Notes: a model not told the origin generated them from the sequence alone. Shown: positions 1 through 47,059, counted from the stretch's first letter. The stretch is DNA of 64,000 nucleotides from Candidatus Omnitrophota bacterium (GCA_903901225.1 CAIUQE010000035.1:9249-73248), one strand, 5' to 3'. A program made the numbers and translations.

Positions 1-474
1 CTGATGATGCTCAACAATTCCGTGGCCAGCATCCAGGTGGGCGAGACCCGCTCATATGTGGAAAGCACCAACATGGAAACCACCCAGGGCGGCGCCACGA
101 TCACGTCCGCGACCCTTAACGAGGTGCACGGCGGCGTGACCCTCCAGCTCACGGGCAGCATTGTCGGTGAGGATGTGTATCTTAATGTCACGCCCGTGGT
201 GAGCACGATCGACGGTATCCGCACGATCATGCTGGGCGGCGGGAATAAGCTTGAAGCGCCGGATACCTCCATGAAAACCATGTCAACGCTCGTTCGCGTG
301 AAAGCGGGGCAGACGGTGGCCATCGGCGGGTTGATCACGCGCGACCGGACAAACCAGCAGCAGGGTGTCCCGTTCTTGTCCAAAGTTCCTGTGCTGGGAA
401 AGATGTTCTCTTACGAGGTGCGCGGTGACAAGCGCACGGAACTTGTCATTTTTATGACACCGCGCCGGGGGTAA
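1..474 (+). CDS. secretin (GspD/PilQ family), C-terminal fragment; 5' end outside window
   Basis: Conserved secretin C-domain motifs (GGLITRDRT...VPFLSKVPVLGKMF...ELVIFMTPR). The reading frame is open to the window edge. Confidence 0.7.
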   Translation: MMMLNNSVASIQVGETRSYVESTNMETTQGGATITSATLNEVHGGVTLQLTGSIVGEDVYLNVTPVVSTIDGIRTIMLGGGNKLEAPDTSMKTMSTLVRVKAGQTVAIGGLITRDRTNQQQGVPFLSKVPVLGKMFSYEVRGDKRTELVIFMTPRRG

Positions 475-477
475 ATC

Positions 478-1515
478 ATGGGTTGTTATCTTTTTCAGAA
501 CGGGAATGTATATTTTGCGGCGCAGGGCAAGGCGGGGAGCCTGCGTTGGGACGAATTCCGGTCTTCCGATATGACGCACGACAGGCACGCGCATATCCTT
601 GTCCTGGAAGGTGAAGGCGGCGCGCGTTTTGAACTGGTGCGACGGAGCCGGGAAGTTTTCGGCCGCGGGTGCATCAGGACCCTGGCACCTTACGCAGAGG
701 GCCTGAGAGCGTATTTTCGCGCGCATGACCTGGCACGTCCTGACGAGAATTTCTTCGTGGCGGATGATCTGGGCGACAGGGTACTTTTGACAGTGTTCCG
801 GGGTGGCCGCGCGGCCATGACCCGGATGATCCCGTCGCAGGACGCTGTCGTGATCATGGATGAGATCCGTCGCACCTGCAAAAGCGTCCAGGAAAAGGAA
901 CCGGGTGTGGTGTTGCGGATCTTTACAAATCGCGCGGGGCTGAAAGATACTGTGTTCTTTGAAACGCGCTTCCCGGCGTTCGACGTCCTTGGCAAGGTGA
1001 AATTCCCGCTGTTAATGTTGCCTGAAGAGGCGGCGGAAATGAAAAAACGTGGCCGGCGCGTTGAATTCATCAAAGCGTGCCTGGCGGCTTTGCTGATGGG
1101 CGGGGCCGGTGCGGGTGCTTGGGGTTGCGCGGGCCATGCCGCGGCGGCCATCGATGCCCGGCTAGGCAGCCTGTCCCGGGAGCGCGCCGCGCTTGAAAAT
1201 GATCTTCGCTCCATCGGCTGTCGGACGTACCATTCCAGCGTGAAGCATTTGCCCTCGGTAAATTTCGCCGCGGTTTTTAGTGTGTTTTTGGATAACGTCC
1301 CGCCGGAAAGCCGGCTTGTATCCGTGGTGTTCCAACGCAGCAGTGACATGACATGGGATCTCGCGGGGACCGTCATGTTCCCGGGGCAGGAAATATATCC
1401 TTTCGCGGCGCGCGGGATATTGTCAGGTGCCATGGCCGACGATATTAACTACCAGGGAAAACCGGGGCTTAGGATCAGTCTGAAGCTGCCTGAAAGACGT
1501 GAGGTGGATAAATGA
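478..1515 (+). CDS. hypothetical bitopic membrane protein, GspL/PilM-N-like assembly component (tentative)
   Basis: Starts 4 nt after the secretin stop. About 200 aa cytoplasmic part, one TM helix (FIKACLAALLMGGAGAGAW), a coiled coil and a ~110 aa periplasmic tail. Assigned by architecture and context only. Confidence 0.3.
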   Translation: MGCYLFQNGNVYFAAQGKAGSLRWDEFRSSDMTHDRHAHILVLEGEGGARFELVRRSREVFGRGCIRTLAPYAEGLRAYFRAHDLARPDENFFVADDLGDRVLLTVFRGGRAAMTRMIPSQDAVVIMDEIRRTCKSVQEKEPGVVLRIFTNRAGLKDTVFFETRFPAFDVLGKVKFPLLMLPEEAAEMKKRGRRVEFIKACLAALLMGGAGAGAWGCAGHAAAAIDARLGSLSRERAALENDLRSIGCRTYHSSVKHLPSVNFAAVFSVFLDNVPPESRLVSVVFQRSSDMTWDLAGTVMFPGQEIYPFAARGILSGAMADDINYQGKPGLRISLKLPERREVDK

Positions 1516-2003
1516 GATCTTTGGTGCTGGTAACGGGGGTGCTGGCCTTCGCGGCCGGGTTGTGGCTGGCCAGGGGGTTCCATGAACACTGTCAACAACA
1601 GTCCGTTGCGGCAAGGCAGATAGAGGCGGAGATACAGGATCTTGCGCGCAAGAAGGCGCTCCTGGAAAAACTGCCGCGGCAGGAGCCGGGCACGCTCATG
1701 CGGGCTTATGCGGGGTTTGTTAATGAGATTGGAATGATGGCCCGGTTCCATCATGTGACGTGGGGCGCCGTTGTCCGGGGCTTGAACGATGCTGACGTTC
1801 AAAAAAGCGCAATGCCTTCTGATATATCGGGCGTCAGGGAACTTGGACTGCAGGTGACATTTTCCAATTTCCCCCGGTTCGGGACCCTTTTGTCATTGCT
1901 GGACGCGGTATCCGATGTTGGGCATGTTTTTCCTGTTGTGGTGCGGAAGGTTTCTTTTGAAAAGGATTCCCTTGTGCTGGATGTGTCAGTGCTGGGGCCG
2001 TAA
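1512..2003 (+). CDS. hypothetical membrane protein, GspM/PilO-like (tentative)
   Basis: ATGA overlap with the upstream gene. N-terminal TM (LVLVTGVLAFAAGLWLA) followed by a coiled coil and a periplasmic domain. Confidence 0.3.
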   Translation: MRSLVLVTGVLAFAAGLWLARGFHEHCQQQSVAARQIEAEIQDLARKKALLEKLPRQEPGTLMRAYAGFVNEIGMMARFHHVTWGAVVRGLNDADVQKSAMPSDISGVRELGLQVTFSNFPRFGTLLSLLDAVSDVGHVFPVVVRKVSFEKDSLVLDVSVLGP

Positions 2004-2015
2004 GGAGATGAAGGC

Positions 2016-2483
2016 ATGAAGAAAATGATGGTTGTTATTTTTTATATTGGGTTGATGATGCCGCTCGCGCGGGCGGGACAGAGTCCGGTCGTGGGAGAAG
2101 ATGAAAATCTTACGCGCATGCGCACGCAGGTCGAGTCCCAGCGGCGTAAGGAGGAGGAGCTTCAACTGTTGCAAATGGATGTCGAGCGGCTGAAACTTGA
2201 GGTTGAAAAGAAAAAAGCCGTCGCCGAGCTGGGGCAGTTGTCCGGCGGCGGGCAGGGTTCCGCGTCATTGACGGGGGCCGGGCCGTCCGTTGTCCTGAAA
2301 TATATTTTTATCAGTGCCGGAGATAAAACGCGGAAAGAGGCTGTATTTGATGTGAACGGCGTCCAAAGCCGGGCGCGTGAAGGCGGCGACGTCGGAGGAA
2401 GGCTGGTGAAGGCTATTGCCGCCCAAGGGGTCACTCTTCAGGCCAAGGACGGCCAGGAGGAGCGTTTTACCCTGAAAGAATAG
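2016..2483 (+). CDS. hypothetical secreted coiled-coil protein (PilP/GspC-like, tentative)
   Basis: N-terminal signal peptide (MKKMMVVIFYIGLMMPLARA) and a charged coiled-coil segment. Same operon as the secretin. Confidence 0.3.
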   Translation: MKKMMVVIFYIGLMMPLARAGQSPVVGEDENLTRMRTQVESQRRKEEELQLLQMDVERLKLEVEKKKAVAELGQLSGGGQGSASLTGAGPSVVLKYIFISAGDKTRKEAVFDVNGVQSRAREGGDVGGRLVKAIAAQGVTLQAKDGQEERFTLKE

Positions 2484-2946: not shown

Positions 2947-5900
2947 TTGAAGAATTGTACGCGAGTGTTGCGTAAATTTATTGCCACCGTATTGATCCTG
3001 GCCTTCACGCTGATGGATCTGCGCGCCTATGCCCAGGGGGTGATCCCCTTGCCGCCGCCAGGCACGCGCCTGGCCCTCAGCCCTATTGTTGCCCCACCGC
3101 TGCTCAAGGGCATCAAGGTGTTCCGTGACGATCCTTTCCGTTTTGATTTTATCCTCGATAAAGGTGACGCGCCGTCCACGGATACGCAGGTTAAAACAGA
3201 TTCAACCCGCCTGATCAAATACTTCCTCGCCGCGCTCACAGTCCCTGAAAAAGACCTCTGGGTCAACCTTTCGCCCTACGAAAAAGACCGCATTGTGCCC
3301 GAAGCCTTTGGCCAGACCGAGATGGGGCGTGATCTTCTGGCCCAGGATTACATTCTTAAACAGATAACGGCATCAGTTCTCTATCCGGATGAGAAAACTG
3401 GCAAGGAATTCTGGGCTAAGGTCTACGCCGAAGCGCAGCAACGTTACGGCACAACCGACATCCCGGTGGACACCTTCAACAAAGTCTGGATCGTCCCGGA
3501 GAAAGCCACCGTCTATGAACACCAGGACGCCGCCTTTGTGGTCGAGAGCGGATTGAAAGTCATGTTGGAAAGTGATTACGTAGCCATGTCCCGGGCGGAC
3601 ATGAAGTCCGCCCCTACAACACAGGGTGTTGCTCTCATGAGCGTAGGGGAGGACCTTGTGTCCTCCCGTAACGAGATCGCAAAAAATGTTTTACGCGAAG
3701 TCATCATCCCCATCCTCGAAAAAGAAGTCAACGAAGGCAAGAATTTCGCCACGCTCCGCCAGGTTTACAACTCCCTCATCCTGGCCACCTGGTACAAGCG
3801 CAAGATCAAAGCCAGCATCATGGGCCGGGCGTACGTCGACCAAAAGAAAACCGCCGGCGTTGACATTGTTGACAAGAACGAGAAGGAAAAGATCTGGGCC
3901 CAATACGTCGAAGCCTTCAAGAAAGGCGCGTACAACTTCATCAAGGAAGAATATGACCCGTCCACGCAAACCACGATCCCCAGGAAGTATTTTTCCGGTG
4001 GGATGGATTGCTCGATGGAGGTGTTCAAGGTAAATGTAACAGATGCGGCTATGCCGGTTGAGGCAATTACCCCAGGACGTGACGTTGTTATCGGTGTAAC
4101 AGGGGCGCTGGAAAAGCCTGCCTTTGAAGAAAATTACAATTTGAAGACATCCGATCAGGACCACGCCATGTTCTCATCGGCGTTAAACATCAAATACAGG
4201 CCTGAGGTCGAACGAATTTATGATATTTACAGCCAGTTCATAAAGGATGGCGGAGGTTATGTATTGCCGTTTTCAAAAGAAAAAGCAGTGAAAAGATTAG
4301 ATTTTCGTTCAGCGGCGAAATCGTATTTTATTGCCGGATGTTATCTTGGTGTTGCCCTTGCTGTAGGTGGTATTCAGTATAGCCTGATACCGGATTCATT
4401 TTTTTTCCAAACAATTGGCAGTTCCATAAAAGTTCTTTCATTAGCGATGTTTTTTTATAAATCTTATACTTCTTTCCTGTACGGCGGGCTTCAGCCACTA
4501 ACTCATAAAGTTATCATGACACGGGCAACAGGTAAACTTGATGCTTTTCATGCGTATGGTATTTCTCATGAGATGGCCCATGTTCTGGAAATGCCAAAAA
4601 ATATTATATATGCTAATGCGTATGGTTTCTTAATGAGCAAGAAACTTGGCTATGAACATTCCAGCTATGATGAGAACATGGCTTTAATTTATGATTTGGA
4701 TATGTTTTCGTCTAAGAATCTGAATGACCATATCTGTCGTGGGCCGGGGTATGCGGTCGCCAATATTATTTTAAAAGAATTTCCCGGCACCTTGTCGGAT
4801 CAGGAGAGGTTGCTTAGAAAATTTCTTCAAGCAGTAGAAAGAAACGAATTTATGCTGGATGAAAGCATAAAAGATGCTTTGAAAAAGACACGATCAAGCC
4901 TGGAAGAGAAAGATTACTTTATAGTTGCTCCCAAACGTGAAAAAAGTTGGATATATCGATATGGGAACGGGATCGCTCAGCTGGCGTTACGGCATTACAA
5001 CAATGACGTTGACGCCGCGTTGCGATATATTTATCGGCTTAGTCGGCAACGGGATTCAAGGTTGGCAGATAAGCCCGTTGATAATGCTATGGAAGAAAAA
5101 AATGACGGCGGGATCAAAGATTTCAATGAAAAATCATTACTTGCCCCCCACCGCCTGACGATCGCCGAAGCCAGGGAGCGCTTGATCGACAGTTTAAAGG
5201 TCATCAAGGCGCATTATCCTGCTTTTCAAAAAGCTTGTTCCGATGGGCTTGAGGTTTTCAAGAACGAAGGAGTTAAGGCATTTGAAAGCAGATCTTATCC
5301 GGTGATCAAGGCAGAGGCCGATGCCCTTCGGGTCCACGTTGACGCGGTGAAGGCATTGCCCGCGTTATTGGGCTTTTCAGAGCCGGAAATGAAAGCCAAA
5401 CTGGATCCGTTCCTGCGGCAGATCGCTGAAGAAGCAAAAGTGGATAAGGTCCTTATTTCGTTCAGGACTGGTTTTTATTATGATTTTTCTTATACGAGCG
5501 GCTTTACGGATGAAGAAATTATGAATTTCAGATTACAGAACGATGAAATTTTCGATGTGATCTCTAATTCCGGAATTCAAATGAGTCCTGAGAAAATAGC
5601 CAAGGGGATGAACGCGTTAAGATCCGCGGGTATGGTTTCAGCACTCGACGTATCAACAGACGCAAAATGGTTGATCAAGATAGAGGATTCTTACATTTCA
5701 ATCGTTATCGGGCGCTCAGCGCAAGGGGTTTCATTGAATGGAGAGCTTACGGATAATGACAGGAAGGCTTTGGCCACGAAGTTGAACGCATTTGTAAGGA
5801 ATGGCCAAGCTCCGTGGTATGGGGTGAGGAAGTTTCTTGACGACAATCAATATAAAACATTTGACGATTTTATGTATTTCTTAAGGCACAACAGCGGGAT

Positions 5901-6819
5901 TGGTCCTTTAAAGGAACACATACTCCCGATCATTTATAATAATATTCCGGAATTGCTGAAAGGATCTCCCGCGCAAGACGGAAGGATTCAGCAGCGGGAT
6001 GATCACATTATTGGAAACATGGTAGAAGTATTAAAACAAACACAACTCCTTGGTAATGTGGAAACATTTTTGCAGTTATTGGAAAAGGGGGCTGAATTTA
6101 AATCTTGGGATATTTCAGGAGAAGTTCATCAGAGAGTCGCGTCATTTAAAGGGATGGCGGAAGACAAGAAGCTCAAGCTTGATATTTCCGGTCTCACAAA
6201 TGAAGCGCTGATCGTCCCTGCGTGCGACCTGAACTGGCTGGATGTGGTGGTGGATAATCTCCTTCAGAATGCCATTAAATATACATCGGCCGGCGCGGTG
6301 AAGGTTCGTCTTTCTAAAAAGATGATGCACGCGGAAGATCCTGATTTAGAACAAGCATTTGCTGTTCTGGAAGTCGAAGATACGGGCATAGGTGTTCCTG
6401 CAGATGAAAGGGTTGCAGTATTGGAGAGAGGATACCGGGCAACGAACGCGATCGCCGCTAAGATCAAAGGCACGGGCATAGGGTTGGATGCTGTTTCTAC
6501 TATTCTGCGCTTGATGCAAGGCGATATTACGGTTGAACCCGGTGAGAATGGAATAGGTTCAAAATTCATCGTCCGCTTGCCGCTTGTTCAAGATCCAAGC
6601 CAGGATCAAGCTGAGGTACCTTTACCCGGCGGCATCGACCTTAACCCGGCGCAACTTGATCTTAAAACGCAGAATTCCGGCGGCGAGATCGCTTTCAATC
6701 TTGACCCCACGTTGCTCGCCCGCCTGCAGAATGCTTCCGGCATTTCACCCGTGATCGTCAGTGTGCGGCCGCTGGACAGCATTTCTGCATTCATGGGGAT
6801 CCAGAAGCCTGTGAAATGA
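2947..6819 (+). CDS. giant (1290 aa) secreted/membrane protein, paralogue A: conserved N-terminal ~330 aa domain, two TM helices, C-terminal GHKL/HATPase_c ATPase domain, conserved ~60 aa C-terminal tail
   Basis: TTG start with an AAAGGA SD 6 nt upstream. Signal peptide ending AYAQG. Residues ~35-365 are ~65% identical to the 17180 protein. N-box LLQNAIKYT, G1 VEDTGIGV and G2 GTGIGLD motifs are present near the C-terminus, but no recognisable H-box. The last ~60 aa (GGIDLN..DL....G..F.DP...) are shared with the paralogue. Confidence 0.75.
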   Translation: MKNCTRVLRKFIATVLILAFTLMDLRAYAQGVIPLPPPGTRLALSPIVAPPLLKGIKVFRDDPFRFDFILDKGDAPSTDTQVKTDSTRLIKYFLAALTVPEKDLWVNLSPYEKDRIVPEAFGQTEMGRDLLAQDYILKQITASVLYPDEKTGKEFWAKVYAEAQQRYGTTDIPVDTFNKVWIVPEKATVYEHQDAAFVVESGLKVMLESDYVAMSRADMKSAPTTQGVALMSVGEDLVSSRNEIAKNVLREVIIPILEKEVNEGKNFATLRQVYNSLILATWYKRKIKASIMGRAYVDQKKTAGVDIVDKNEKEKIWAQYVEAFKKGAYNFIKEEYDPSTQTTIPRKYFSGGMDCSMEVFKVNVTDAAMPVEAITPGRDVVIGVTGALEKPAFEENYNLKTSDQDHAMFSSALNIKYRPEVERIYDIYSQFIKDGGGYVLPFSKEKAVKRLDFRSAAKSYFIAGCYLGVALAVGGIQYSLIPDSFFFQTIGSSIKVLSLAMFFYKSYTSFLYGGLQPLTHKVIMTRATGKLDAFHAYGISHEMAHVLEMPKNIIYANAYGFLMSKKLGYEHSSYDENMALIYDLDMFSSKNLNDHICRGPGYAVANIILKEFPGTLSDQERLLRKFLQAVERNEFMLDESIKDALKKTRSSLEEKDYFIVAPKREKSWIYRYGNGIAQLALRHYNNDVDAALRYIYRLSRQRDSRLADKPVDNAMEEKNDGGIKDFNEKSLLAPHRLTIAEARERLIDSLKVIKAHYPAFQKACSDGLEVFKNEGVKAFESRSYPVIKAEADALRVHVDAVKALPALLGFSEPEMKAKLDPFLRQIAEEAKVDKVLISFRTGFYYDFSYTSGFTDEEIMNFRLQNDEIFDVISNSGIQMSPEKIAKGMNALRSAGMVSALDVSTDAKWLIKIEDSYISIVIGRSAQGVSLNGELTDNDRKALATKLNAFVRNGQAPWYGVRKFLDDNQYKTFDDFMYFLRHNSGIGPLKEHILPIIYNNIPELLKGSPAQDGRIQQRDDHIIGNMVEVLKQTQLLGNVETFLQLLEKGAEFKSWDISGEVHQRVASFKGMAEDKKLKLDISGLTNEALIVPACDLNWLDVVVDNLLQNAIKYTSAGAVKVRLSKKMMHAEDPDLEQAFAVLEVEDTGIGVPADERVAVLERGYRATNAIAAKIKGTGIGLDAVSTILRLMQGDITVEPGENGIGSKFIVRLPLVQDPSQDQAEVPLPGGIDLNPAQLDLKTQNSGGEIAFNLDPTLLARLQNASGISPVIVSVRPLDSISAFMGIQKPVK
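3593..3667. repeat. REPIN-like hairpin doublet, copy A, in frame inside CDS (GGGCGGAC-atgaa-GTCCGCCC ...32 nt... GGGAGGAC-cttgt-GTCCTCCC)
   Basis: Two 21-nt hairpins (8-bp GC stem, 5-nt loop) 32 nt apart. Additional CCCCTAC/GTAGGGG pairing bridges the spacer. Homologous to the copies at 17832 and 10929. Confidence 0.8.
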
Positions 6820-6837: not shown

Positions 6838-7134
6838 TTATTTCAGGAACCGTCGAACCTGGTCGTGGTTGCCGGCGAGCATGGCGGTGAAGGCGAGGCC
6901 GTCTTTGCGCAGGACGAGGCGTAATTTTCCCTCAATGCCGGCTTCGTAGAATGGCCGGCGCAGTTGCTTGAAAAAGAACCGCGGCGCGATCTTTTGCGCT
7001 TCCGTGAGGTCGTTGTTCGTTGAGAAATAAGCCAGCAAGGCCCGCAGGGCTGTTTTGACGGTTTCTTTTTGCTGTGGATCAAGGCCTTTGACGTCGCGCT
7101 CGAAGGACGGGAGCCAGGCGAGGGTATACGGCAT
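6838..7134 (-). CDS. type II toxin, RelE/ParE superfamily (98 aa)
   Basis: 98 aa basic protein with a C-terminal ...MLAGNHDQV motif typical of RelE/StbE-like toxins. Overlaps the upstream antitoxin gene by 4 nt. Convergent with giant gene A, with 18 bp between stops. Confidence 0.55.
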   Translation of the reverse strand: MPYTLAWLPSFERDVKGLDPQQKETVKTALRALLAYFSTNNDLTEAQKIAPRFFFKQLRRPFYEAGIEGKLRLVLRKDGLAFTAMLAGNHDQVRRFLK

Positions 7135-7137
7135 GGG

Positions 7138-7380
7138 CTACAGCCTTTCGATATCCCTGGCCGTTACCTTCTTCGCGGTGTTCTTTTCTTTCTGGTAGAC
7201 GGACTCCAGCCTGGCATATTCCTCATCCGAAAATATTTTTTCGACCGTTTCCAGCGGCACCAGTTCAAGGCGGTTGCCTTTGATATGGATATCAAAAAGC
7301 GCCCCTTCCGCGAGGTGCATTTCATTGATGAGTTTTTTGGGGATCGTGATCTGGTTCTTACTGGTCAGTGTGATGGTCAT
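7138..7380 (-). CDS. AbrB/MazE/SpoVT-family antitoxin (start at internal Met, MTITLTSKNQITIPKK)
   Basis: Swapped-hairpin DNA-binding motif ITIPKKLINEMHL..G. A strong SD (AAGGAG) lies 6 nt upstream of the ATG at 7380 on the minus strand. Forms an operon with the toxin. Confidence 0.65.
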   Translation of the reverse strand: MTITLTSKNQITIPKKLINEMHLAEGALFDIHIKGNRLELVPLETVEKIFSDEEYARLESVYQKEKNTAKKVTARDIERL

Positions 7381-7549
7381 GGACAGCTCCTTATTGTGGT
7401 ATAAGTTTACCATATATTCTGAAATTCCGTAAAGAAGAAAGTAAGGCTATGGAATTGGACTATCGGGTTGCGAACTGGGCCGCAAAATCCGGGTTGACCG
7501 GGTCGATTGAGGCGTTTATAGTAAAGGTGACTATTAATATATTTTCGAT

Positions 7550-10911: not shown

Positions 10912-10928
10912 AACTCCGTTGAACGTAG

Positions 10929-11009
10929 GGGCCGACCTTGTGTCGGCCCGAAACATTTGCCGGATATCATAAGGATGCATTCTCCGACGGGAGGACACAA
11001 GGTCCTCCC
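10929..11009. repeat. REPIN-like hairpin doublet, copy C, intergenic (GGGCCGAC-cttgt-GTCGGCCC ...39 nt... GGGAGGAC-acaag-GTCCTCCC)
   Basis: Same 21-nt hairpin unit as inside the giant genes. The two hairpins are in mutually inverted orientation. Lies 18 nt after the hflX stop. Confidence 0.8.
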
Positions 11010-11045
11010 CCACGCACCATTTAAACATTCACAGAAAATTTTTTC

Positions 11046-17179: not shown

Positions 17180-20100
17180 ATGAAGAAGACCTTTTATTTT
17201 CGATTTATTTCTGCCTGGATCCTTGTCAGTTTCCTGACAACCGGGGTGGTCCCGTCGGGCGCATACGCGCAGGCGTTGAACCTTCCGGCACCGGGGACCA
17301 TGGTATCCCTGACACCGGCCTATATGCCGATCCTCATGAAGGGTGTCCGGGTGCATCCCGAGAACCCTCTTTTGTTTGACTTTATCCTCGATAGCGGGAA
17401 ATCCGCCCTCAAGGCTGAAAGCCCTGAATTCAAGGCTGAATCCCAAAAACTCATCAAGTATTTCCTGGCGTCATTGACGATCAAGGAAGAAGACCTGTGG
17501 GTCAACTTGTCGCCTTACGAAAAAGACCGGATGATCACCGATGAGCTGGGCAAGACCGAACTGGGGCGTGACATGCTGGCGCAGGATTATATCCTCAAGC
17601 AGTTGACCGCTTCCCTTATATACCCCGAGAAGGATCTCGGCAAAGCATTCTGGGACAGGGTTTACTCCAAGGCGCGGGAACAATTTGGTAACACAGATAT
17701 CCCGGTCGACACCTTCAACAAAGTCTGGATCACAGCCGACAAGGCCAAGGTCCTCGAACGTAACAACGTAGCCTACGTCGTCGGCGCGCATCTGAAGGTG
17801 ATGCTGGATGTGGATTATACCGCTGCTATGCGGGCCGACACAAGGTCGGCCCCTACAACCAATAATGTTAGTGCGAAGGGCGTAGGGGAGGACCTTGTGT
17901 CCTCCCGCGATGAGATCGCCCGACAGGTCATCCGCGACGTCGTCATCCCCGAGATCGAAAAAGAAGTCAACGAAGGCCAAAACTTCGCCATGTTGCGCCA
18001 GATGTTCTATTCCATGATCCTCGCCTCCTGGTACAAGCTCGCGCTCAAGGATGCGCTGCTGAATCAGGTATATAGCAATCAAGCCAAGACCAGCGGGGTC
18101 CTGTCCGACGATCCGGCGGTCAAGGACAAGATCTATACGCAGTATCTGGAAGCCTACAAGAAGGGCGTGTTCAATTATATCAAGGAAGACATGGACGCTG
18201 TGAGTCAGCAGCCTGTGCCGCGGAAGTATTTTTCGGGTGGGCTCAATTTATTTCCCAAGGGATCTGAAACTGTTGAGTATGCGCAAGCGGCAACGCAGGA
18301 GCAGATAGCGAATATTACGTTTTCAAAATTATGGTCTATTTCCGTTCTGGTTACCCGAGAGCGGACGCCACCTTCTAAGGCAACAGAGACGGAGCCGACG
18401 ATCCTTTATGATCTGTGGGGAAGCATGGAAGTTACACCTGCAGTAGATCTCTATAAATTGGAAAGTTGGTGGATAGAAGGGGGAGAATATTGGAAGGCTT
18501 TCGTGAATCTCAAGAAAGCCCTCGATACAGATGCCAAATATACTCGTTTTGATGACATGGGCAAGGCGGAAAATTATATATCTGGAAAAAAATTTAAAGA
18601 AGCTGAAAAGATATTAAGGCAGGTCATATCAGCCAATCCGGAGTATTCATTGGCCTATGCCTATTTAGGGTTGGCCTTATGCGCGCAAGGCAATACTGAA
18701 GAGGCATACAAGAATAATATGAAAGCCGCGGAGCTGGATGCCATTAACAAGATCGAAATAAGAAAATTTCCGCAAAGGCCATTGTCGCGTGCGGCGAGAC
18801 TTGAAAGATATATGCAAATTTTCAGAAAATTTTTTCCTCAAAGAATGACGTATGAAGCTTTTGTGGATCGTGTTTGGGATGGCAGGATCAAGGAAAACCC
18901 CAGGATCAAGGTCCAAACTTATTCGGCGAATAAAGACAAAAAAAGTATTTATGTGGGGAAGTTGAATAAAATTGGCCCATACTTGGAGCTCTTTATTCAA
19001 CCTGAGGAAGGGGATGGGGTAAAAATAGATTCCTACAAAATTAAAAGGATCACTGTTTATCCCGATTTAGCTCAGGTGAAAGAGGCGTCTGACGCGGCGG
19101 AAAAGAGCTTATCTGTTGAAGAAATGATCTCATTGGGACAATTGCATGAACGCCAAGGTGATTTGGAAAGTGCGGAAAAATATTTTCGTGATGCTGTGAA
19201 AAAGAACGGCAATGATGCCAGGGCCCACGCGGTCCTTGGCGTGTTTTTGAGATCTGTGAATCGTCTGGATGAGGCCGTGCAAGAGTTGGAGATAGCTCAA
19301 AACTTGGATCATCAGTATTATCCTGAGTATTTTACCGTCGACGGAATCCAAAAGCTGATAGATGGATATGTAGTTGATGCCATTGAGGATTTTGAAGAGG
19401 CAGTGAAATCAGATGAAGAGATGGCATTGGCTTATGCGTGGTGGGGGATCGCCTTGAATGCCGCAGCAGATAAAAAAGCCAAAAGAGAGGGGGGGCAAGT
19501 CTCGGGATCTCAAAGAAGCGAGGCACTTGGTTATATAAAACACGCGTTGATATTGGATCCAGAAAACAAGGAGATCAAAAGACTTCTTGCCCTTCTTAAG
19601 CCATCCTTTTTATCAAAGGTGAGGTTCGCCAGGGATTTCACCGGGGAAACAATGAGCGCTGAACAGTTTAAAAAAGCGATTCTGACGGGGAAGATCCAGC
19701 CGGGGACCAGGATCAAGATCAAACGGGTCTTTGAAGAAGGGGTTTCCACGGGGATCACGGATAATGTCGTTTTTGGATATGTCGAGACAACGCCCCATAG
19801 CAGTACGCCTGACATTGTTTACAATCTCCCGTTATTTACAGGTGATGGAAAAATAGTGAGTCTTGATAAAATTGTTGAGGTTACTGTTTACGACGCGTCA
19901 ATGGAAACTATCACGGCGCCCGAAGGCCTGGAGAACTCAAATCAAACATTGACCATCAAGTCCGACGCGGCGGAAAAAATATCAGGGTCAATGCGTCAAA
20001 CGGATGCTGAAATTATGGCAGGCCTGGAAGAAATAATGGCTCTTCCTGATGCATCGAAAGAAGCCATGGAGCAAGTTTTGTCAGATTTTGCGCAGGGAAT

Positions 20101-21202
20101 TCCTCCCACAACGAATATATCTGATGTGCCGACAGATCAGGAATTGGAGGATTTGGTTTTCAAGGTTTCGGAATTTGCGACAAGTAACAGTGAATTTATT
20201 CAAGCGTTGCAAAGAGTAACGCCTGAGCAGATCGAGGAATTTGTCAGGATGGATTTGCGTTTTGACGAAGATAAGAAACCGGCACTCATTCAATTGATGC
20301 TGAAGATCAGGGAGCTCTCCAGTGATCACGTTCTTGCGGCTGGAAGGATGTTGGGGGAAAACCCAGAAGTATCAGCAAATTTTATTAAAACCGTTAATCA
20401 ATTGGTTTATATCTTTGAACAGGGAAAGCTTGGCGGGTTGGTCAAAGTGGACAAGGAAAGGCAAAGAAGGATACATCTGATAAAAGGCGCATTTGAATAT
20501 GTCCTGTTTTTTGCGATGGCTTTGGTTGGAGAGATGGGGGCAGAACAGCTTTCTGAAGTTCGTGGGAATTTGTCGAGGTTTTTTATGGTGGCGATAAGTA
20601 TAGCTTGGTTGATCAATAAATCGGGGATGGACATTTCAAATCCATTAGGAACAAAGTCACCTGCGTTGATCAAGCCGGTTTATTTCAATTCTATGTTGAA
20701 GGCGGATATGGTAAAGATGGCCGAGGATTTTTTGAAGGATAATAGATCGGTCAGGGCGGCCTCCGAAAATATCGCGTTATTGAAACTCAAGAAGCGGTTG
20801 ATGCTTTGGCTGAAGAACACCATGTTCATTGATAAAGATTCACGTAACACGGCCTTTAAGGGGATATCAACGTATATCCGTGTTGTTGAGGTGCAGAAGG
20901 GCTTGTACAAAGTAGAGCTTGATCCCGATGCCAAGATGGATGGCGCGCAAAAGGGCATGGACCAGGCGGAAAATGTTAAAGAACCTGAGCAGCATAGAGA
21001 TAATGCCGGAGTTACAAACGGCGGTATCGACCTCAACGCCAAAAAGATGGACCTGGACGTGGCCAGGGATGGCAAGGGTGTTGAGATGACATTTGACCCG
21101 GCCATGGTCGCGGAGTTCCGCAAGGGTAATTTTACGGGAGTTGAAGGGATCATCCTCAAGATCGTCCCGATCGAGAACCCCCAGGCGCTCCTGGGGCTGT
21201 AG
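17180..21202 (+). CDS. giant (1340 aa) secreted protein, paralogue B: conserved N-terminal domain, TPR repeats, conserved ~60 aa C-terminal tail; no ATPase domain
   Basis: GAGGA SD 8 nt upstream of the ATG at 17180. Signal peptide ending AYAQA. The N-terminal ~330 aa and C-terminal ~60 aa are homologous to the 2947 protein. The middle contains TPR-like repeats and is AT-rich. Confidence 0.75.
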   Translation: MKKTFYFRFISAWILVSFLTTGVVPSGAYAQALNLPAPGTMVSLTPAYMPILMKGVRVHPENPLLFDFILDSGKSALKAESPEFKAESQKLIKYFLASLTIKEEDLWVNLSPYEKDRMITDELGKTELGRDMLAQDYILKQLTASLIYPEKDLGKAFWDRVYSKAREQFGNTDIPVDTFNKVWITADKAKVLERNNVAYVVGAHLKVMLDVDYTAAMRADTRSAPTTNNVSAKGVGEDLVSSRDEIARQVIRDVVIPEIEKEVNEGQNFAMLRQMFYSMILASWYKLALKDALLNQVYSNQAKTSGVLSDDPAVKDKIYTQYLEAYKKGVFNYIKEDMDAVSQQPVPRKYFSGGLNLFPKGSETVEYAQAATQEQIANITFSKLWSISVLVTRERTPPSKATETEPTILYDLWGSMEVTPAVDLYKLESWWIEGGEYWKAFVNLKKALDTDAKYTRFDDMGKAENYISGKKFKEAEKILRQVISANPEYSLAYAYLGLALCAQGNTEEAYKNNMKAAELDAINKIEIRKFPQRPLSRAARLERYMQIFRKFFPQRMTYEAFVDRVWDGRIKENPRIKVQTYSANKDKKSIYVGKLNKIGPYLELFIQPEEGDGVKIDSYKIKRITVYPDLAQVKEASDAAEKSLSVEEMISLGQLHERQGDLESAEKYFRDAVKKNGNDARAHAVLGVFLRSVNRLDEAVQELEIAQNLDHQYYPEYFTVDGIQKLIDGYVVDAIEDFEEAVKSDEEMALAYAWWGIALNAAADKKAKREGGQVSGSQRSEALGYIKHALILDPENKEIKRLLALLKPSFLSKVRFARDFTGETMSAEQFKKAILTGKIQPGTRIKIKRVFEEGVSTGITDNVVFGYVETTPHSSTPDIVYNLPLFTGDGKIVSLDKIVEVTVYDASMETITAPEGLENSNQTLTIKSDAAEKISGSMRQTDAEIMAGLEEIMALPDASKEAMEQVLSDFAQGIPPTTNISDVPTDQELEDLVFKVSEFATSNSEFIQALQRVTPEQIEEFVRMDLRFDEDKKPALIQLMLKIRELSSDHVLAAGRMLGENPEVSANFIKTVNQLVYIFEQGKLGGLVKVDKERQRRIHLIKGAFEYVLFFAMALVGEMGAEQLSEVRGNLSRFFMVAISIAWLINKSGMDISNPLGTKSPALIKPVYFNSMLKADMVKMAEDFLKDNRSVRAASENIALLKLKKRLMLWLKNTMFIDKDSRNTAFKGISTYIRVVEVQKGLYKVELDPDAKMDGAQKGMDQAENVKEPEQHRDNAGVTNGGIDLNAKKMDLDVARDGKGVEMTFDPAMVAEFRKGNFTGVEGIILKIVPIENPQALLGL
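17832..17906. repeat. REPIN-like hairpin doublet, copy B, in frame inside CDS (GGGCCGAC-acaag-GTCGGCCC ...33 nt... GGGAGGAC-cttgt-GTCCTCCC)
   Basis: Same position in the protein alignment as copy A. It encodes RADTRSAPTT...VGEDLVSSR. Confidence 0.8.
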
Positions 21203-21219: not shown

Positions 21220-21921
21220 TTAACCCGCGGGTGGTCCTGAAAGGGCCTGCAACATGACAATGGTGTCTTCAATAAGCTGTTTTCTGGCCCATTGTTTTTG
21301 ATCTTCGTCCAGGGCGGTGCCCAATCCCTGCAAGATGTTCCTGGGCGTAAAAGTCTTCCTGATGAACTTGATCGTCATCTGGATCAATTCATCCGTCCCC
21401 TTGCCTGTCCGTTCACGGATCAGGTCAGAATCAGCGCGGAATCCTGACTTGAGGAAATACCAGATATCATACAGATCCCGGGCGACAGGTGTTTTACGGT
21501 CAGTCAAAGCCACCAGTTTATTCGTCAGAAGGGTGGTTTCCTCGGGGATAGTGAGGGAAACGCCCAGGAACAGGACAGGTTTGAATTTGTTAGCCGTCCA
21601 AAGCCTTTTGTTAAGCTCGATCTTGATGTTGGGATAACCCGCGCCGTAGTCAAGGACACCCAAAAGTGTAAAGTGTTTGTCTTGCCAGTCGAGGATGCGG
21701 CCCTCCCGGGCCAGGATGGAGCGTAAGCGCGCGACGTCATCATCGGAGAAAGGCTTGAGCATATCGAAATCCAGGTCAAAAGAGAAGCGGGGAAGGCCGT
21801 AGAAGAAGAGCGCGCACGTGCCGCCTTTAAAGGCGATCTTCCCGGGAAATGCTTTGGTAATGGACGTCAGCAAGCTTGTCAAATATCGGCGATGAAGCGC
21901 CTGGTCAAACTTGCGTTCCAT
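21220..21921 (-). CDS. AbiEii/AbiGii-family nucleotidyltransferase toxin (type IV TA / abortive infection)
   Basis: FKGGTCALFFYGLPRFSFDLDFDM nucleotidyltransferase motif. Convergent with giant gene B, with 17 bp between stops. Confidence 0.75.
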   Translation of the reverse strand: MERKFDQALHRRYLTSLLTSITKAFPGKIAFKGGTCALFFYGLPRFSFDLDFDMLKPFSDDDVARLRSILAREGRILDWQDKHFTLLGVLDYGAGYPNIKIELNKRLWTANKFKPVLFLGVSLTIPEETTLLTNKLVALTDRKTPVARDLYDIWYFLKSGFRADSDLIRERTGKGTDELIQMTIKFIRKTFTPRNILQGLGTALDEDQKQWARKQLIEDTIVMLQALSGPPAG

Positions 21922-22516
21922 AAAACTTACGCGCTTTCTTTTGCACGGTTAAAGGGAAAATACCACATAATTGTTTCAGATAGCTCCGGTCAAGGCGATC
22001 CGGAGTATCAATGTCAGGCATAAAACCGAAATACAATGAATCCAGGATGGCCCGTTCGGGGCAGGCGATAGAAACATTGTTTTTTGTGATGATCCCTTCC
22101 TGATGAAAAAACAATTCTTTCTTTATGGAGTAGTAGGCGTACGTGATGCTTTGGATCTTGCGCCGATAAGAGAGAAGGGCTACGGAATCAATGCTTTTGC
22201 GCTGCTGAAAATTGATCCCCGCGCTTGCCAAAGCGCTGTTAAAAGACACATACGAAGGCGTGATCACTAAATTAGCCAGCGCACGCGTGTCATAATTCTC
22301 GTCAATGGCATAATAGCCCTTGGCCAGCCTGAGGATCAGCTTCCGTTCCACCATGCGGGCGGCGCTGATCTTGGCGGTCAGCGCGCTGTCCTTCCAGAGT
22401 ACACGAAGATCCTGCGGACGGAAAACCGTTCGCCCGGAACTCATCAAAATTTTCAATCGCGTTGATGCATTCATATGCGATAGAAGTATACAACATTGTA
22501 TCCTTGGATGCAACAT
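21905..22516 (-). CDS. AbiEi-family antitoxin/transcriptional regulator (start may be the internal Met at 22474)
   Basis: N-terminal AbiEi-type winged helix (GRTVFRPQDL...RKLILRLAKGYYAI). Overlaps the toxin gene by 17 nt. Confidence 0.65.
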   Translation of the reverse strand: MLHPRIQCCILLSHMNASTRLKILMSSGRTVFRPQDLRVLWKDSALTAKISAARMVERKLILRLAKGYYAIDENYDTRALANLVITPSYVSFNSALASAGINFQQRKSIDSVALLSYRRKIQSITYAYYSIKKELFFHQEGIITKNNVSIACPERAILDSLYFGFMPDIDTPDRLDRSYLKQLCGIFPLTVQKKARKFYGTQV

Positions 22517-30819: not shown

Positions 30820-31746
30820 ATGAAGAAATACGTGGTTGGTGTCGATGTTGGCGGGACGAACGTGAGGCTTGGGCTGGTCGATCCGCGCGGGGATGTTTGT
30901 TCCAGCCTGTCTTTTGCCACCCGGCATTTTTCCGCGACCCCGGAGAAACTCACCGGCGCGATCTGCGAGGCTGTCGGTACGCTCCTGCGCAAGGAACGGA
31001 TCGTGAAGGCCAGGATCGCGGGCGTTGGCGTGGGGCTTCCCGGCCTGGTCGATGTTGAAAAAGGCATTGTCCGGATCCTTCCTAATATCCCGGGATGGAA
31101 GGACGTCTTGTTGCAAAAAGACATGGAAAAACGCCTTGGATTGCGGGTCCAGCTTGAGAATGACGTGAACATGATCACCCTCGGCGAATGGAAATACGGC
31201 GCCGGCAGGGGGTTTACGGATGTGATCGTGATGACGCTCGGCACGGGCGTTGGCGCGGGGCTTGTCCTTTCCGGCGACATTTATCGCGGCCCCGGGTTTG
31301 CCGCGGGTGAGATCGGCCACGCGCCGTTCAATGATGAAGGGCCTGAATGCGGCTGCGGCGGTTGGGGGTGTTTTGAACGTTATGTGGGCAACAAGGAGCT
31401 CCAGCGCCTGGCGGCCGGCATATTCAAGGAGCGTGACATCGCGCTTGAAGAAGTTTACCGCAAGGCGGTGGACGGAAAAAAGAAAGCCCTGGAATTCTGG
31501 GACATGGTCGGGCAGAGGGTCGGCAACGGCCTGGTCGGCGCGGTCAATCTCCTGAATCCCGAGGCGGTTGTCATCGGCGGCGGGGTGTCCCGCAGTTTTG
31601 CTTTTATCGAGCCGGCGATCGCGCGAACGTTGCGCCGGCGCGCGATGCGCACGCAGGCCGAGATGGTCCGTATCGTCAAGGCCCAGCTGGATGATGATGC
31701 CGGTATTATTGGAGCCAAGGTATTGATCTGCCATGAAAAACATTAA
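30820..31746 (+). CDS. ROK-family sugar kinase (glucokinase-like)
   Basis: VGVDVGGTNVRLGLVD and the ROK zinc motif GH..C.CG..GC.E. Confidence 0.85.
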   Translation: MKKYVVGVDVGGTNVRLGLVDPRGDVCSSLSFATRHFSATPEKLTGAICEAVGTLLRKERIVKARIAGVGVGLPGLVDVEKGIVRILPNIPGWKDVLLQKDMEKRLGLRVQLENDVNMITLGEWKYGAGRGFTDVIVMTLGTGVGAGLVLSGDIYRGPGFAAGEIGHAPFNDEGPECGCGGWGCFERYVGNKELQRLAAGIFKERDIALEEVYRKAVDGKKKALEFWDMVGQRVGNGLVGAVNLLNPEAVVIGGGVSRSFAFIEPAIARTLRRRAMRTQAEMVRIVKAQLDDDAGIIGAKVLICHEKH

Positions 31747-33874
31747 GACCTGTTCTGTTTTTCTGTTCATGCTCCTCGTGCTGTGCGGGTGGGTGTCCGT
31801 GGTGAAGGTGTTTGCCCAGGACACAGGATCGAAGAATGCTGACCCCGTGGAACTGAACGGCGACGTGATCGAGTACAAGGCCGAAGAAGGGAAGATGGTC
31901 GCCACGGGCAATGTGCTGTTGAAGCAGAAAGACACGGTCCTTTATTGCGATAAGGTGGAGTTTTACAAGGAAAAGAAAGAGGCCCATGCCGAGGGCAATG
32001 TTATCCTTAAGTCCGGCAGGGGAGAGGTATGGGCGGACAAGGCTTTTTTTAATTTCGCGACCAAAAAAGGCGAGTTCACCAACGCGCGCTTCATGGCCGA
32101 CCCGCTTTACGGACGCGCCCGTTCCATCATCAGGGTGGGGGAAAATTATTATATCCTCAAGGATGGTTATCTGACGACGAGCGATTACGACACCCCCGGA
32201 TATCGTATCAAAGCGAGGCGCCTGGACGTTTATCCTGATGACAAGGCTGTGGCCCGTGATTCGGTCATGTACCTGGGGTCGGTCCCGATCATGTACATGC
32301 CAAAATATGTCCAGGATCTGCGTACCGACCGGCCGCATTTCAGCTTCATTCCCGGTTACAGCAAGGAGTTCGGGCCTTACGCGTTAATGACGTACCGCGC
32401 GCCGTTGACCGGGCGGATCGAAATGCTTTACCATCTTGACCTGCGGGAGCGCAAGGGCATCGCGTGGGGCATTGATGCTAAATATAACGCGGCGCCTTAC
32501 GGGACCGGCCTTGTGCGAACTTATTACACCAAGGAAACCAAGGCGGATAATCGTTGGCTCTGGGAACAGAATACGGAACCTGTTGTCAAACACCAGCAGG
32601 CGCGCGTCGAATGGCGACATATGGTGGACATCGACCCTGCTACATTTTTGATCGGACAATATTACCGGATCAGGGACCCCAATTTCATGGTCAGGTATTT
32701 TCCCAGGGAGCATCAGCAGGATGAAAGTCCCGCCACATACGTGCTGTTGACACATTCAACGTCGGCCACAACCTCTTCCTTACGTTTTGATCGCCGTGTA
32801 AACCGCGACCAGGCCATGGTAGAACGTTTGCCGGAGGCTTCCTTTTCCTTGTCCAATCAGGAGCTTGGCACCAGCGGGTTTTATTTCAAGAGCACGAACA
32901 CTGCCTCCAGCCTGGTGTACAAAGACCCGGCGCCGTCGGATAATCAAAAACGCACCCTGCGCCTTGACACGGACAATGACCTGTCGCATCCCTTCAAGGT
33001 CGCGTTTCTCGAGGTTAATCCTCATGTCGGTACCGAACAGACGTATTACTGGCGGGCTTTGGAGATGAAGGACAATAACAGTATCCGCGGGCTTTTCAAG
33101 ACCGGCGTGGACTTAAGCACCAAATTTTACAAGATCTATAACGCGCATTTTGACAAATGGGGATTTGAGCTTAACAATGTTCGCCATGTCATCACCCCGA
33201 CGGTATCTGAATGGTATCAGCACGCGCCCACCATGCCTTCTTCCAAGTTTTACCAATATGACGCCATGGATAACCGGGCCATGAGCCATCAGGTCACATT
33301 TGGCATCGAGAATAAGTTGCAGACGAAAAGGAAAGGCGTGTCGGTGGATTTCTTTCGTTCATTGTTCAGCGTGCCCTATCGGCTTAATGATGACCCTGCC
33401 GGACCAGGACTGGGTGATATGACGGTAGCCAATGAGTTTTATGCCAATCAATATGTGTCCTTGCATGAGGACATGACGTACAGCAACGATTTGCACCAGC
33501 TGCAGACGGTGAATGTGAGCATAGGTCTGAATGACCAGAATAAATGGGACCTTAATATTGGTCAGCGCAAGGCTACAGGAGGGGAAGATCTTTTTACGTC
33601 CCAATTGTCCTACAAGTTCAATCCTTTGTGGAAGACGGTCATCTACGAGCAGTTTGAATCGAGGACCGGGCAGTTGCGGCAGCAGCAGTATTCCTTTGTC
33701 CGCGACCTGCATTCCTGGGAGGTGGAATTCGCCTTTATTGACAAGAACCACTACCAGGACAGCGGCAGTGAGATATGGTTCATTTTTCGCATCAAAGCAT
33801 TCCCGTCAGTCGCTGTTAACGGCGGTTCGAGTTTCGCGACGGCAAAAGCAGGGTCACAGTCGAAGACGTTTTAG
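31733..33874 (+). CDS. lptD: LPS-assembly protein LptD (OstA family)
   Basis: Signal peptide, an N-terminal OstA-like domain (VELNGDVIEY...GNVLLKQKD..) and a large C-terminal beta-barrel. Confidence 0.75.
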   Translation: MKNIKTCSVFLFMLLVLCGWVSVVKVFAQDTGSKNADPVELNGDVIEYKAEEGKMVATGNVLLKQKDTVLYCDKVEFYKEKKEAHAEGNVILKSGRGEVWADKAFFNFATKKGEFTNARFMADPLYGRARSIIRVGENYYILKDGYLTTSDYDTPGYRIKARRLDVYPDDKAVARDSVMYLGSVPIMYMPKYVQDLRTDRPHFSFIPGYSKEFGPYALMTYRAPLTGRIEMLYHLDLRERKGIAWGIDAKYNAAPYGTGLVRTYYTKETKADNRWLWEQNTEPVVKHQQARVEWRHMVDIDPATFLIGQYYRIRDPNFMVRYFPREHQQDESPATYVLLTHSTSATTSSLRFDRRVNRDQAMVERLPEASFSLSNQELGTSGFYFKSTNTASSLVYKDPAPSDNQKRTLRLDTDNDLSHPFKVAFLEVNPHVGTEQTYYWRALEMKDNNSIRGLFKTGVDLSTKFYKIYNAHFDKWGFELNNVRHVITPTVSEWYQHAPTMPSSKFYQYDAMDNRAMSHQVTFGIENKLQTKRKGVSVDFFRSLFSVPYRLNDDPAGPGLGDMTVANEFYANQYVSLHEDMTYSNDLHQLQTVNVSIGLNDQNKWDLNIGQRKATGGEDLFTSQLSYKFNPLWKTVIYEQFESRTGQLRQQQYSFVRDLHSWEVEFAFIDKNHYQDSGSEIWFIFRIKAFPSVAVNGGSSFATAKAGSQSKTF

Positions 33875-42533: not shown

Positions 42534-42546
42534 AGAATATCTCCGG

Positions 42547-44325: not shown

Positions 44326-44333
44326 CGGCCGCG

Positions 44334-45293: not shown

Positions 45294-45345
45294 CGGGCCG
45301 CGGGTTACGACTTGGATGTCGGATAAATGCATGTTTGGAGGGGGC

Positions 45346-46200: not shown

Positions 46201-46270
46201 AGGCTCCGGCATGAAAAGACTCGACGTGAGTTGTTCAAGGGACAAAGTCAAGGGTTCCGTGCAGGGAGCG

Positions 46271-47050: not shown

Positions 47051-47059
47051 AAGGAAACA

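Follow-up and report, generated by a model that had tools for sequence, protein, structure and literature searches.

The question raised by the DNA examined here, a stretch of 64,000 nucleotides from a Candidatus Omnitrophota bacterium (GCA_903901225.1, CAIUQE010000035.1:9249-73248; this whole stretch is referred to below as the window), is why two of its genes, A and B, encode proteins that are alike at both ends and unrelated in between. The original prediction, made from the sequence of the window, regarded these genes as coding for two giant, secreted paralogues, and it suggested that the common N-terminal module (N-module) and C-terminal tail around different cores reflect either an exchange of cassettes by recombination or a shared signal for export or anchoring. 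Our analysis suggests that A and B belong to a very large and unnamed family of paralogous proteins restricted to the Omnitrophota, in which cassettes of cargo are exchanged between two conserved ends that would act as handling modules, and to this reading as a whole, including both the turnover of the cassettes and the handling role of the ends, we assign a probability of about 0.6.

The open reading frames (ORFs) of A and B are both real, and as their exact products of 1290 and 1340 aa are each recorded in at least 15 contigs, neither of them is an assembly chimera. The mechanical reading frame of ORF B opens earlier than the gene listed here, at a TTG at 17165, and the ATG at 17180 is its best start. 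For proteins of 1290-1340 aa the term giant is an overstatement, and the term secreted holds insofar as their N-termini are signal-peptide-like, which is its sole basis. The parts of the two genes are as follows (GC3, G+C content at third codon positions).

2947-6819, + strand: gene A (ORF A), 1290 aa, TTG start with AAGGA seven bases 5' of it; composite cargo
2947-3033, + strand: signal-peptide-like N-terminus of gene A, with a basic n-region, the h-region FIATVLILAFTLM and then AYA/Q, as read from the translation
3037-4002, + strand: N-module of gene A (residues 31-352), PRKYFSGG at its end; 53% identity to B; GC3 0.68
4003-4053, + strand: linker of gene A, with D-A-A-M (residues 366-369), the punctuation motif after the N-module, at its end
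4054-5079, + strand: cargo cassette 1 of gene A (residues 370-711); GC3 0.39; no counterpart in the related protein P0274 (see below)
4309-4455, + strand: two weakly hydrophobic segments of cassette 1 (residues 455-474 and 485-503)
4567-4581, + strand: HEMAH (HExxH) motif of cassette 1
5080-5127, + strand: internal junction of gene A, D-N-A-M followed by GGIKDFN, which is like the tail start GGIDLN
5143-6591, + strand: cargo cassette 2 of gene A (residues 733-1215); GC3 0.48; HATPase_c at 6226-6588 (Pfam E = 4.7e-19)
6616-6816, + strand: C-terminal tail of gene A (residues 1224-1290), GGIDLN at 6628-6645; GC3 0.63
17180-21202, + strand: gene B (ORF B), 1340 aa, ATG at 17180 with GAGGA 5' of it; TPR-bearing cargo
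17180-17269, + strand: signal-peptide-like start of gene B, with a basic n-region, a hydrophobic h-region and AYA/Q
17273-18241, + strand: N-module of gene B (residues 32-354), PRKYFSGG at its end; GC3 0.70
18242-21010, + strand: cargo of gene B (residues 355-1277), TPR at about 18566-18739 and 19073-19330; GC3 0.47
21011-21199, + strand: C-terminal tail of gene B (residues 1278-1340), GGIDLN at 21020-21037; GC3 0.68

In BLASTP alignments the N-terminal regions of A and B are 53% identical (75% positives over 351 aa; E = 8e-119); the common N-module is hence real, but its identity had been placed too high, at about 65%. Its PRKYFSGG end falls at residues 347-352 of A and 349-354 of B. The common tail, of 65-75 aa, is likewise borne out (33% identity over 76 aa; E = 8e-8). 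Between these ends no significant similarity of the A and B cores was found, either by BLASTP or by tblastn of the window, in agreement with the claim that they are unrelated, and tblastn revealed no third copy of the N-module or the tail in the 64-kb window. Scans of both proteins against Pfam (E ≤ 0.1) and NCBIfam (E ≤ 0.01) detected only HATPase_c and TPR; the TPR repeats noted earlier in B are Pfam hits, and neither end matches a named family, as had been supposed. The HATPase_c domain of A (PF02518) covers residues 1094-1214 (E = 4.7e-19). Consistent with the statement that it is not accompanied by an H-box, no HisKA-type family was detected in A at Pfam E ≤ 0.1, a degenerate dimerization and histidine phosphotransfer (DHp) domain being possible, and the NCBIfam alignments of the HATPase_c region begin past the H-box and score far under the family cut-offs. 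The two transmembrane (TM) helices predicted for A exist as segments, but they are weak, their mean hydropathy being only 1.38-1.45, which is below the 1.6 cut-off. The cargo of A may be described as a weakly membrane-associated segment with an HExxH motif together with a GHKL ATPase module, and that of B as a probable TPR scaffold. With their identity of 53%, A and B are old paralogues of different subtypes.

The description of A and B as two paralogues misses a phylum-wide family with thousands of members. With the N-module of A as the query, more than 1380 homologous proteins were found; the module is covered by a Pfam domain in none of them, and nearly all of those with a named source come from Omnitrophota/Omnitrophica genomes. 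A count of paralogues, based upon a scan of one genome per species, showed that the N-module is encoded at no fewer than 592 places, with several per genome. Omnitrophota assemblies, of which some bear the label "uncultured Planctomycetales", account for all of the best 80 places, and several genomes supply four or five of these 80 loci. Tandem arrays of family genes are present in many loci, with up to four genes in a row (L049). A local hidden Markov model of the N-module gives E-values around 1e-150 for members of the family. For the tail, a profile of 78 positions was compared, with no word index, to 1.84 billion cluster representatives, and it matched 5238 proteins at E ≤ 0.001 and 1742 at E ≤ 1e-10; a word-indexed search with the tail alone gave only nine proteins, so that the exhaustive profile search was required. 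All of the tail matches listed lie at the C-terminus or no more than about 40 residues from it, the largest protein having 3948 aa, and the longer tail-bearing proteins nearly all start with the N-module. No description of the family or of its motifs was found in the literature searched.

In the loci that were fetched, the tail is present at the end of 62 of the 72 complete N-module ORFs, in most of which it ends 0-9 residues from the stop codon. The core between the two ends has a length of 11-1654 aa in complete genes and of more than 3000 aa in genes that run off the locus, and the members seen range from 438 to about 4000 aa. At the lower limit is the minimal member P0002, which consists of the N-module, 11 aa and the tail; its neighbour is a member of 1110 aa. 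Since many of the database homologues are fragments on short contigs, assemblies tend to break at N-module genes. In three split members (L002, 7964-10939; L027, 7961-10934; L029, 11438-14213) an ORF with only the N-module is followed by an ORF with only the tail, the two either overlapping or separated by a few hundred bases; a frameshift, a pseudogene or an error in sequencing might explain such cases. Proteins with the tail only include a 351-aa HIT/GDPGP1-like enzyme encoded just upstream of the minimal member (L001, 580-1635), the cyclic-nucleotide-binding protein P0189 (3948 aa), and P0185 (1128 aa), which begins like a glucose-6-phosphate isomerase.

Turnover of the cargo between the conserved ends

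The cores were compared for a sample of 112 full-length members. The N-modules are at least 70% identical in 355 pairs of these proteins, and in only five of the 355 could the cores be aligned over at least half of the shorter core. The cores of P0169 and P0170 are unrelated and differ in length even though the N-modules of these proteins are 98% and their tails 80% identical, and this is also the case for P0164 and P0166 (N-modules 94%, tails 92% identical). Both genes of the window have partners of this kind: B is 82% identical to P0158 (898 aa) in the N-module and 78% in the tail with nothing alike between them, and A is 77% and 69% identical, respectively, to a 736-aa member from locus L003 that has an unrelated core. 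The identity of the N-modules and that of the tails are correlated (r = 0.715, a value reached by none of 999 Mantel permutations), and because the identities of the ends correlate while the cores are unrelated, the two ends travel together and the core does not.

The base composition of the genes changes at the same junctions. Within the window, GC3 is 0.68-0.70 in the N-modules and 0.63-0.68 in the tails, as compared with 0.44-0.47 in the cores and 0.70-0.83 in the neighbouring genes (Fisher p from 1e-14 to 2e-3). For the 51 family genes with enough flanking DNA, the GC3 of the N-module and the tail is within 0.02 of that of the neighbouring genes, whereas that of the core is 0.11 lower than in these genes (p = 4e-9), in low-GC and high-GC genomes alike. 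Within single genes, the N-module is higher in GC3 than the core by more than 0.1 in 31 of 63 cases, and in no case is it lower by more than this. A higher AT content than that of the host is typical of accessory DNA that has been acquired recently or evolves fast. GC-biased conversion raising the GC content of the ends was considered and rejected, since the ends match the neighbouring genes and the cores are the outliers; locus L085 shows the opposite.

Gene A provides an example of growth at a junction. Among 5.8 billion proteins, the only relatives found for its core were its own fragment and P0274, a protein of 956 aa from another genome. The two proteins are 61% identical over residues 1-352 of A and 48% identical over residues 705-1285. 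As residues 353-704, the edges of which are clean, have no counterpart in P0274, A corresponds to the architecture of P0274 with an insertion of 350 aa placed directly after the N-module. The D-N-A-M and GGIKDFN at the downstream edge of this insertion look like a remnant of a tail start, and because the extra segment ends at this junction, the cargo of A consists of two cassettes in series. Within the family, a D-x-[AS]-M motif is present up to 60 residues after the N-module in 58% of the members, as against 9% expected from its mid-core frequency, and up to 25 residues before GGIDL in 32%, as against 3.6% expected.

The cargo is diverse. Pfam searches of 55 cores identified HATPase_c (5), S-adenosylmethionine (SAM) methyltransferases (5), HEAT (4), radical SAM (3) and TPR (2), and the single cases included Glu/Leu/Phe/Val dehydrogenase, PPDK_N, alanine dehydrogenase and histidine phosphatase; in addition, one member is annotated as a glucose-6-phosphate isomerase and P0200 is named "CheY-like" by one source. 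A TM-like segment is lacking from 85 of the 112 cores. About eight of the 60 cores whose start was read have, 25-50 residues past the N-module, a signal-peptide, lipobox or twin-arginine-like segment of their own, and the presence of such export signals at the beginning of cores suggests that whole genes for exported proteins have been captured behind the N-module. These cores are from loci L013, L015, L017, L020, L022, L030, L034 and L054, with, for example, the lipobox LVSAGC or LSSC and the twin-arginine segment RRQFL.

Our results show, at the level of sequence, a resident frame in which cargo is replaced or concatenated at the PRKYFSGG, D-x-A-M and GGIDLN junctions, and a turnover of cassettes, in which the cargo is swapped wholesale between conserved ends, is well supported. 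The cassette exchange of the original prediction is strongly supported by the 94-98% identical N-modules around unrelated cores, by the breaks in GC3 and by the 350-aa insertion, but recombination between A and B themselves is not indicated by their sequences. Replacement at a fixed chromosomal position was less clear. A slot downstream of trpF is common to four genomes and holds family genes with unrelated cores, and as the N-modules of these genes are only 49-61% identical, this slot provides no proof of replacement in place. Gene B is located downstream of the hrcA-grpE-dnaK-dnaJ operon; none of its relatives P0158, P0134, P0172 and P0131 is in such a post-dnaJ slot, and the set contained no dnaJ-linked locus.

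The nature of the conserved ends and alternative explanations

Just ahead of the N-module, 108 of the 112 full-length members have a signal-peptide-like hydrophobic segment, and A-x-A followed by Q is enriched ahead of a conserved LPxPG. This is the pattern of a Sec signal peptide that would be cleaved by signal peptidase I. For the N-module of A an AlphaFold2 model was obtained (predicted local distance difference test (pLDDT) 76.8, predicted template modeling score 0.72), which no fold among PDB structures resembles, and a profile of the module matched nothing among PDB sequences. The tail profile yielded only marginal chance matches to PDB sequences. The invariant positions of the tail are GGxD, DP, G, I and G, and its last ~20 residues are hydrophobic with prolines.

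In the explanation that we favor, each member has a probable Sec-type signal peptide at its start, followed by a conserved N-terminal domain of ~320 aa without a detectable known fold and with PRKYFSGG at its end, a short linker that often closes in D-x-A-M, a cargo of 11 to more than 3000 aa that is often followed by another D-x-A-M, and lastly a C-terminal domain of ~65 aa (GGIDLN ... FDP ... and a hydrophobic, proline-containing end) that finishes a few residues from the stop. Our comparisons show the two ends to be a resident frame, diverging together and having the codon composition of the host genome, and the cargo to be replaced wholesale, or enlarged by insertion at a junction, through recombination or the uptake of AT-richer DNA. 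The protein would be exported by Sec, and in export, anchoring or assembly its ends would then serve as handles common to very different cargo, located in the cell envelope or extracellularly. A shared export or anchoring signal in the ends, the other suggestion of the original prediction, is plausible, and such a handling role may be linked to the host-dependent or predatory lifestyle that has been proposed for this phylum.

A number of observations weigh against this explanation. Much of the cargo is of a cytoplasmic type that needs ATP, SAM or NAD(P) (e.g., glucose-6-phosphate isomerase, Glu/Leu/Phe/Val dehydrogenase, PPDK_N and radical SAM), and, delivery into another cell aside, it fits poorly with a location in the periplasm or outside. 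Some tail-bearing proteins have neither the N-module nor a signal peptide, and hence a strictly post-Sec role of the tail is not universal. The signal peptides were assigned by simple hydropathy and motif counts rather than by a trained predictor, and neither end has a detectable known homologue in Pfam, NCBIfam or PDB. At locus L085 the compositional pattern is reversed, the ends being GC-richer than the host genes and the core not being the outlier, and the low GC3 of cores in general could result in part from fast evolution under AT-biased mutation rather than from a foreign origin. Lastly, conserved neighbouring machinery was not found in 81 related loci, where the best cluster comprised eight loci and contained housekeeping genes only. 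A secretin gene, besides that in the window, was near a family gene in one of the 84 related loci searched (L082, where P0158 follows it). As the neighbours are only housekeeping genes and secretin is rare, the loci examined point to no dedicated machinery beside the family genes, and a sorting machinery co-occurring with the tail, as had been envisaged, was found nearby neither in the window nor in the 81 related loci.

The ends can also be interpreted in other ways. An extended form of the above explanation, which we consider possible but put forward only tentatively, is that the N-module and the tail are the two halves of a phylum-specific general carrier, by which whatever protein stands between them would be exported and afterwards displayed, assembled or passed to a host cell, with the D-x-A-M and double-glycine junctions (PRKYFSGG and GGIDLN) as boundaries for processing or recombination, and that the giant Omnitrophota proteins grow by serial insertion of cassettes, of which gene A, with its two cassettes and internal D-N-A-M ... 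GGIKDFN remnant, would be a snapshot. Alternatively, the tail might bind to the N-module of the same or another molecule, producing a head-to-tail docking scaffold in which members close on themselves or join into chains of enzymes or arrays at the surface. Such a scaffold would correspond, without covalent links, to the giant multi-enzyme polypeptides of other Omnitrophota, and it would have analogues in cohesin-dockerin pairs and in the docking domains of modular synthases. The tandem arrays of members and the overlap of their cargo repertoire with that of the giant proteins are in keeping with docking, and so is the co-divergence of N-module and tail subtypes (r = 0.715), although the latter is expected anyway for co-inherited parts of one gene. 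When P0002 was modelled whole with AlphaFold2, strands were predicted for the first 30 tail residues (pLDDT 62-86) despite the disordered linker that precedes them, but the remainder of the tail, its last 40 residues, has a pLDDT below 40. Tails within one genome are also very unlike each other (33% identity for A and B), and we regard docking as unlikely.

Delivery of the cargo by the N-module into or onto a host or prey cell, in the manner of a polymorphic effector or toxin-like system, would account for the cytoplasm-type enzymes, which are sensible inside a target cell, and it agrees with the signal peptide, with a fast-replaced cargo of foreign composition present in many copies per genome, with the lifestyle proposed for the phylum and with the secretin genes that precede gene A and P0158. 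However, the known polymorphic toxins vary at their extreme C-terminus, which is conserved here, the Pfam hits listed for the 55 cores contain no toxin families, the 81 loci revealed no conserved gene downstream as a candidate immunity partner, and a secretin is nearby, the window aside, in the single locus noted above; this explanation, too, seems improbable. The HATPase_c domain of A and the two weakly hydrophobic segments after its N-module, together with cargo that is receiver-type by annotation (the "CheY-like" P0200), could indicate a periplasmic sensor, in which the N-module is an extracytoplasmic ligand-binding domain, the cores are cytoplasmic outputs and A is sensor-kinase-like. This is very hard to reconcile with the lack of a TM-like segment in 85 of 112 cores, because of which most members cannot span the membrane, with the failure to detect a HisKA family in A, and with B and the minimal member, neither of which has an output domain. 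The possibility that we rate lowest is that the proteins are ordinary duplicates whose middles have diverged until no longer recognizably related, or chimeras that arose in assembly through a repeated module. The modest 53% identity of the A and B N-modules, which marks them as old paralogues, and the many fragmentary homologues on short contigs would agree with it, but it is contradicted by the 94-98% identical N-modules around unrelated cores of unequal length, the sharp steps of GC3 at both junctions, the clean-edged insertion of A relative to P0274 and the occurrence of the exact products in at least 15 contigs each.

Hairpins within the N-modules and neighbouring genes

The N-modules of A and B both contain, in the same low-confidence variable loop (residues 215-242), a doublet of GTAG-type repetitive extragenic palindromic (REP) units, and a third doublet is present between two genes of the window.

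3592-3668, no strand assigned: GTAG-type REP doublet (REPIN-like) in the N-module of A; in frame, encoding RADMKSAPTT...VGEDLVSSR; -47.8 kcal/mol, z = -5.9
17830-17908, no strand assigned: GTAG-type REP doublet in the N-module of B, in the same loop; in frame; -48 kcal/mol, z = -7.1
10925-11013, no strand assigned: intergenic REP doublet between hflX and a MORN-repeat gene, with the same two stem variants as the intragenic copies

Each unit is made up of a GTAG head, an 8-bp stem and a 5-nt loop, with the two units of a doublet inverted, and each of the three doublets folds as a single long hairpin (-42 to -48 kcal/mol, z from -3.9 to -7.1). The second unit has 28 bases identical between A and B, the flanking DNA being clearly less conserved, and the first stem of B shows a compensatory G/C swap relative to that of A. 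As the reading frame through the hairpin differs between genes, it is the hairpin that is conserved and not the peptide. Of the 46 GTAG units in the window and 1.13 Mb of related loci, 23 are inside N-modules, which make up 8.4% of this DNA (p = 2e-13). Most of these intragenic units are at the same loop, in at least 10 genomes, each with a stem sequence of its own that is also found intergenically; besides the window, the doublets are in loci L003, L005, L006, L029, L031, L048, L049, L063, L072 and L079. We know of no earlier description of REP dimers recurring at one loop of one family. The doublets may only exploit a loop that tolerates them, or they may contribute to recombination. Among the genes tabulated for the window, no RAYT (Y1 transposase) family was present. 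GTAG REP dimers inside genes, with 20-30 aa encoded by them, are known from earlier work (Di Nocera et al., 2013; PMC3733652), and those have in common with the doublets reported here the GTAG head, the inverted dimer, the long hairpin and the ~25 aa encoded in frame, whereas the present doublets differ in occupying the same loop of one protein family in at least 10 genomes, with genome-specific stems.

On its 5' side (window 4-2483), gene A is preceded by the end of the secretin gene (519 aa in a longer contig) and by ORFs of 345, 163 and 155 aa, the latter three having no Pfam or NCBIfam match. Gene A is followed, on the - strand, by a toxin-antitoxin pair consisting of a MazE-like antitoxin and a 98-aa partner (6838-7413), and gene B by another, with an AbiEii toxin and a likely AbiEi partner (21220-22516, - strand). 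A BrnT-type toxin gene is located just upstream of the minimal member in L001. With toxin-antitoxin genes flanking A, B and the minimal member, the family genes tend to adjoin accessory genes. The window also encodes LptD (31733-33874), PriA and Fmt. At about 42500-59000 there is a same-strand cluster for glycan/lipopolysaccharide (LPS) biosynthesis, comprising glycosyltransferases, methyltransferases, radical SAM/SPASM enzymes and aminotransferases, along with two heptosyltransferase-like genes and an MsbA-like ATP-binding cassette exporter. The presence of LptD and of this glycan/LPS cluster indicates that the organism is a diderm with an elaborate surface glycan. Scans of the window for tRNAs and Rfam families were empty.

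Comparison with known systems

The build of these proteins resembles that of several known systems in part. Gene A is similar to sensor histidine kinases in its C-terminal HATPase_c domain, which could be aligned with the catalytic domain of many of them, but it differs in that no HisKA/H-box family accompanies this domain, which is only one cargo among many in the family; as no HisKA family was found, A is not a canonical histidine kinase. Autotransporters end in a C-terminal beta-barrel, and RTX substrates of type I secretion carry GGxGxD repeats and are without a signal peptide, unlike the present family with its signal-peptide-like segment, and there was no Pfam hit to Autotransporter or HemolysinCabind in A or B. 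Sortase-type signals consist of a motif, a TM helix and a basic cluster, whereas the tails of A and B end in ...LLGL or ...QKPVK without a basic cluster and their hydrophobic end contains prolines; no Pfam or NCBIfam match to the PEP-CTERM, GlyGly-CTERM or LPXTG sorting signals was detected in either protein.

The cargo proteins of the type IX secretion system (T9SS), which is a system of the Bacteroidota, are similar to this family in having a Sec signal, diverse cargo and a conserved C-terminal domain of ~60-100 aa in many paralogues per genome, but they are without a conserved 320-aa N-terminal domain. Neither A nor B was matched by the Por_Secre_tail/T9SS C-terminal domain models (Pfam E ≤ 0.1, NCBIfam E ≤ 0.01), and no T9SS gene is present in the gene tables covering the window. 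The polymorphic toxins (Rhs, CdiA and MafB) likewise have conserved trafficking regions, recombined variable parts, many copies and a contrast in composition; however, in these the C-terminal tip is variable and is accompanied by an immunity gene, whereas in the present family an internal part is variable, the C-terminus is conserved and the cargo consists of enzymes and repeats.

The Omnitrophota are widespread, mostly uncultured and ultra-small bacteria with a suspected dependence on, or predation of, other cells, and the longest proteins predicted from any genome are theirs. The family described here provides a tractable entry to how such giant proteins are built, exported and diversified, as it has thousands of ordinary-sized members, including the near-cargo-less P0002 of 438 aa and gene A, which has been caught with two concatenated cassettes. 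Both ends merit family models of their own in the domain databases. If they are indeed handles for export, anchoring or assembly, they would account for a large part of what is now the "hypothetical" proteome of the phylum, the way in which giant genes grow would become testable, and one might gain a natural carrier for heterologous cargo. The passages searched in the reports on giant Omnitrophota proteins ("Archaeovorins" and others; bioRxiv 10.1101/2023.11.21.568195 and 10.64898/2026.06.07.730766) contain no description of this pair of ends. The giant proteins are similar to the family in belonging to the same phylum and in having unnamed N-terminal regions, predicted signal peptides and concatenated modules as in A, and the domains listed for them (bioRxiv 10.1101/2023.11.21.568195) overlap with the family's cargo in HEAT, HATPase_c, radical SAM, TPR and PPDK_N, among others; their length exceeds 10,000 aa, as compared with 438 to about 4000 aa for the family members. 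In relation to all of these systems, we rate the family as one of a known kind, that of exported proteins with conserved ends and exchangeable cargo, which is built in this case from two unnamed domains.

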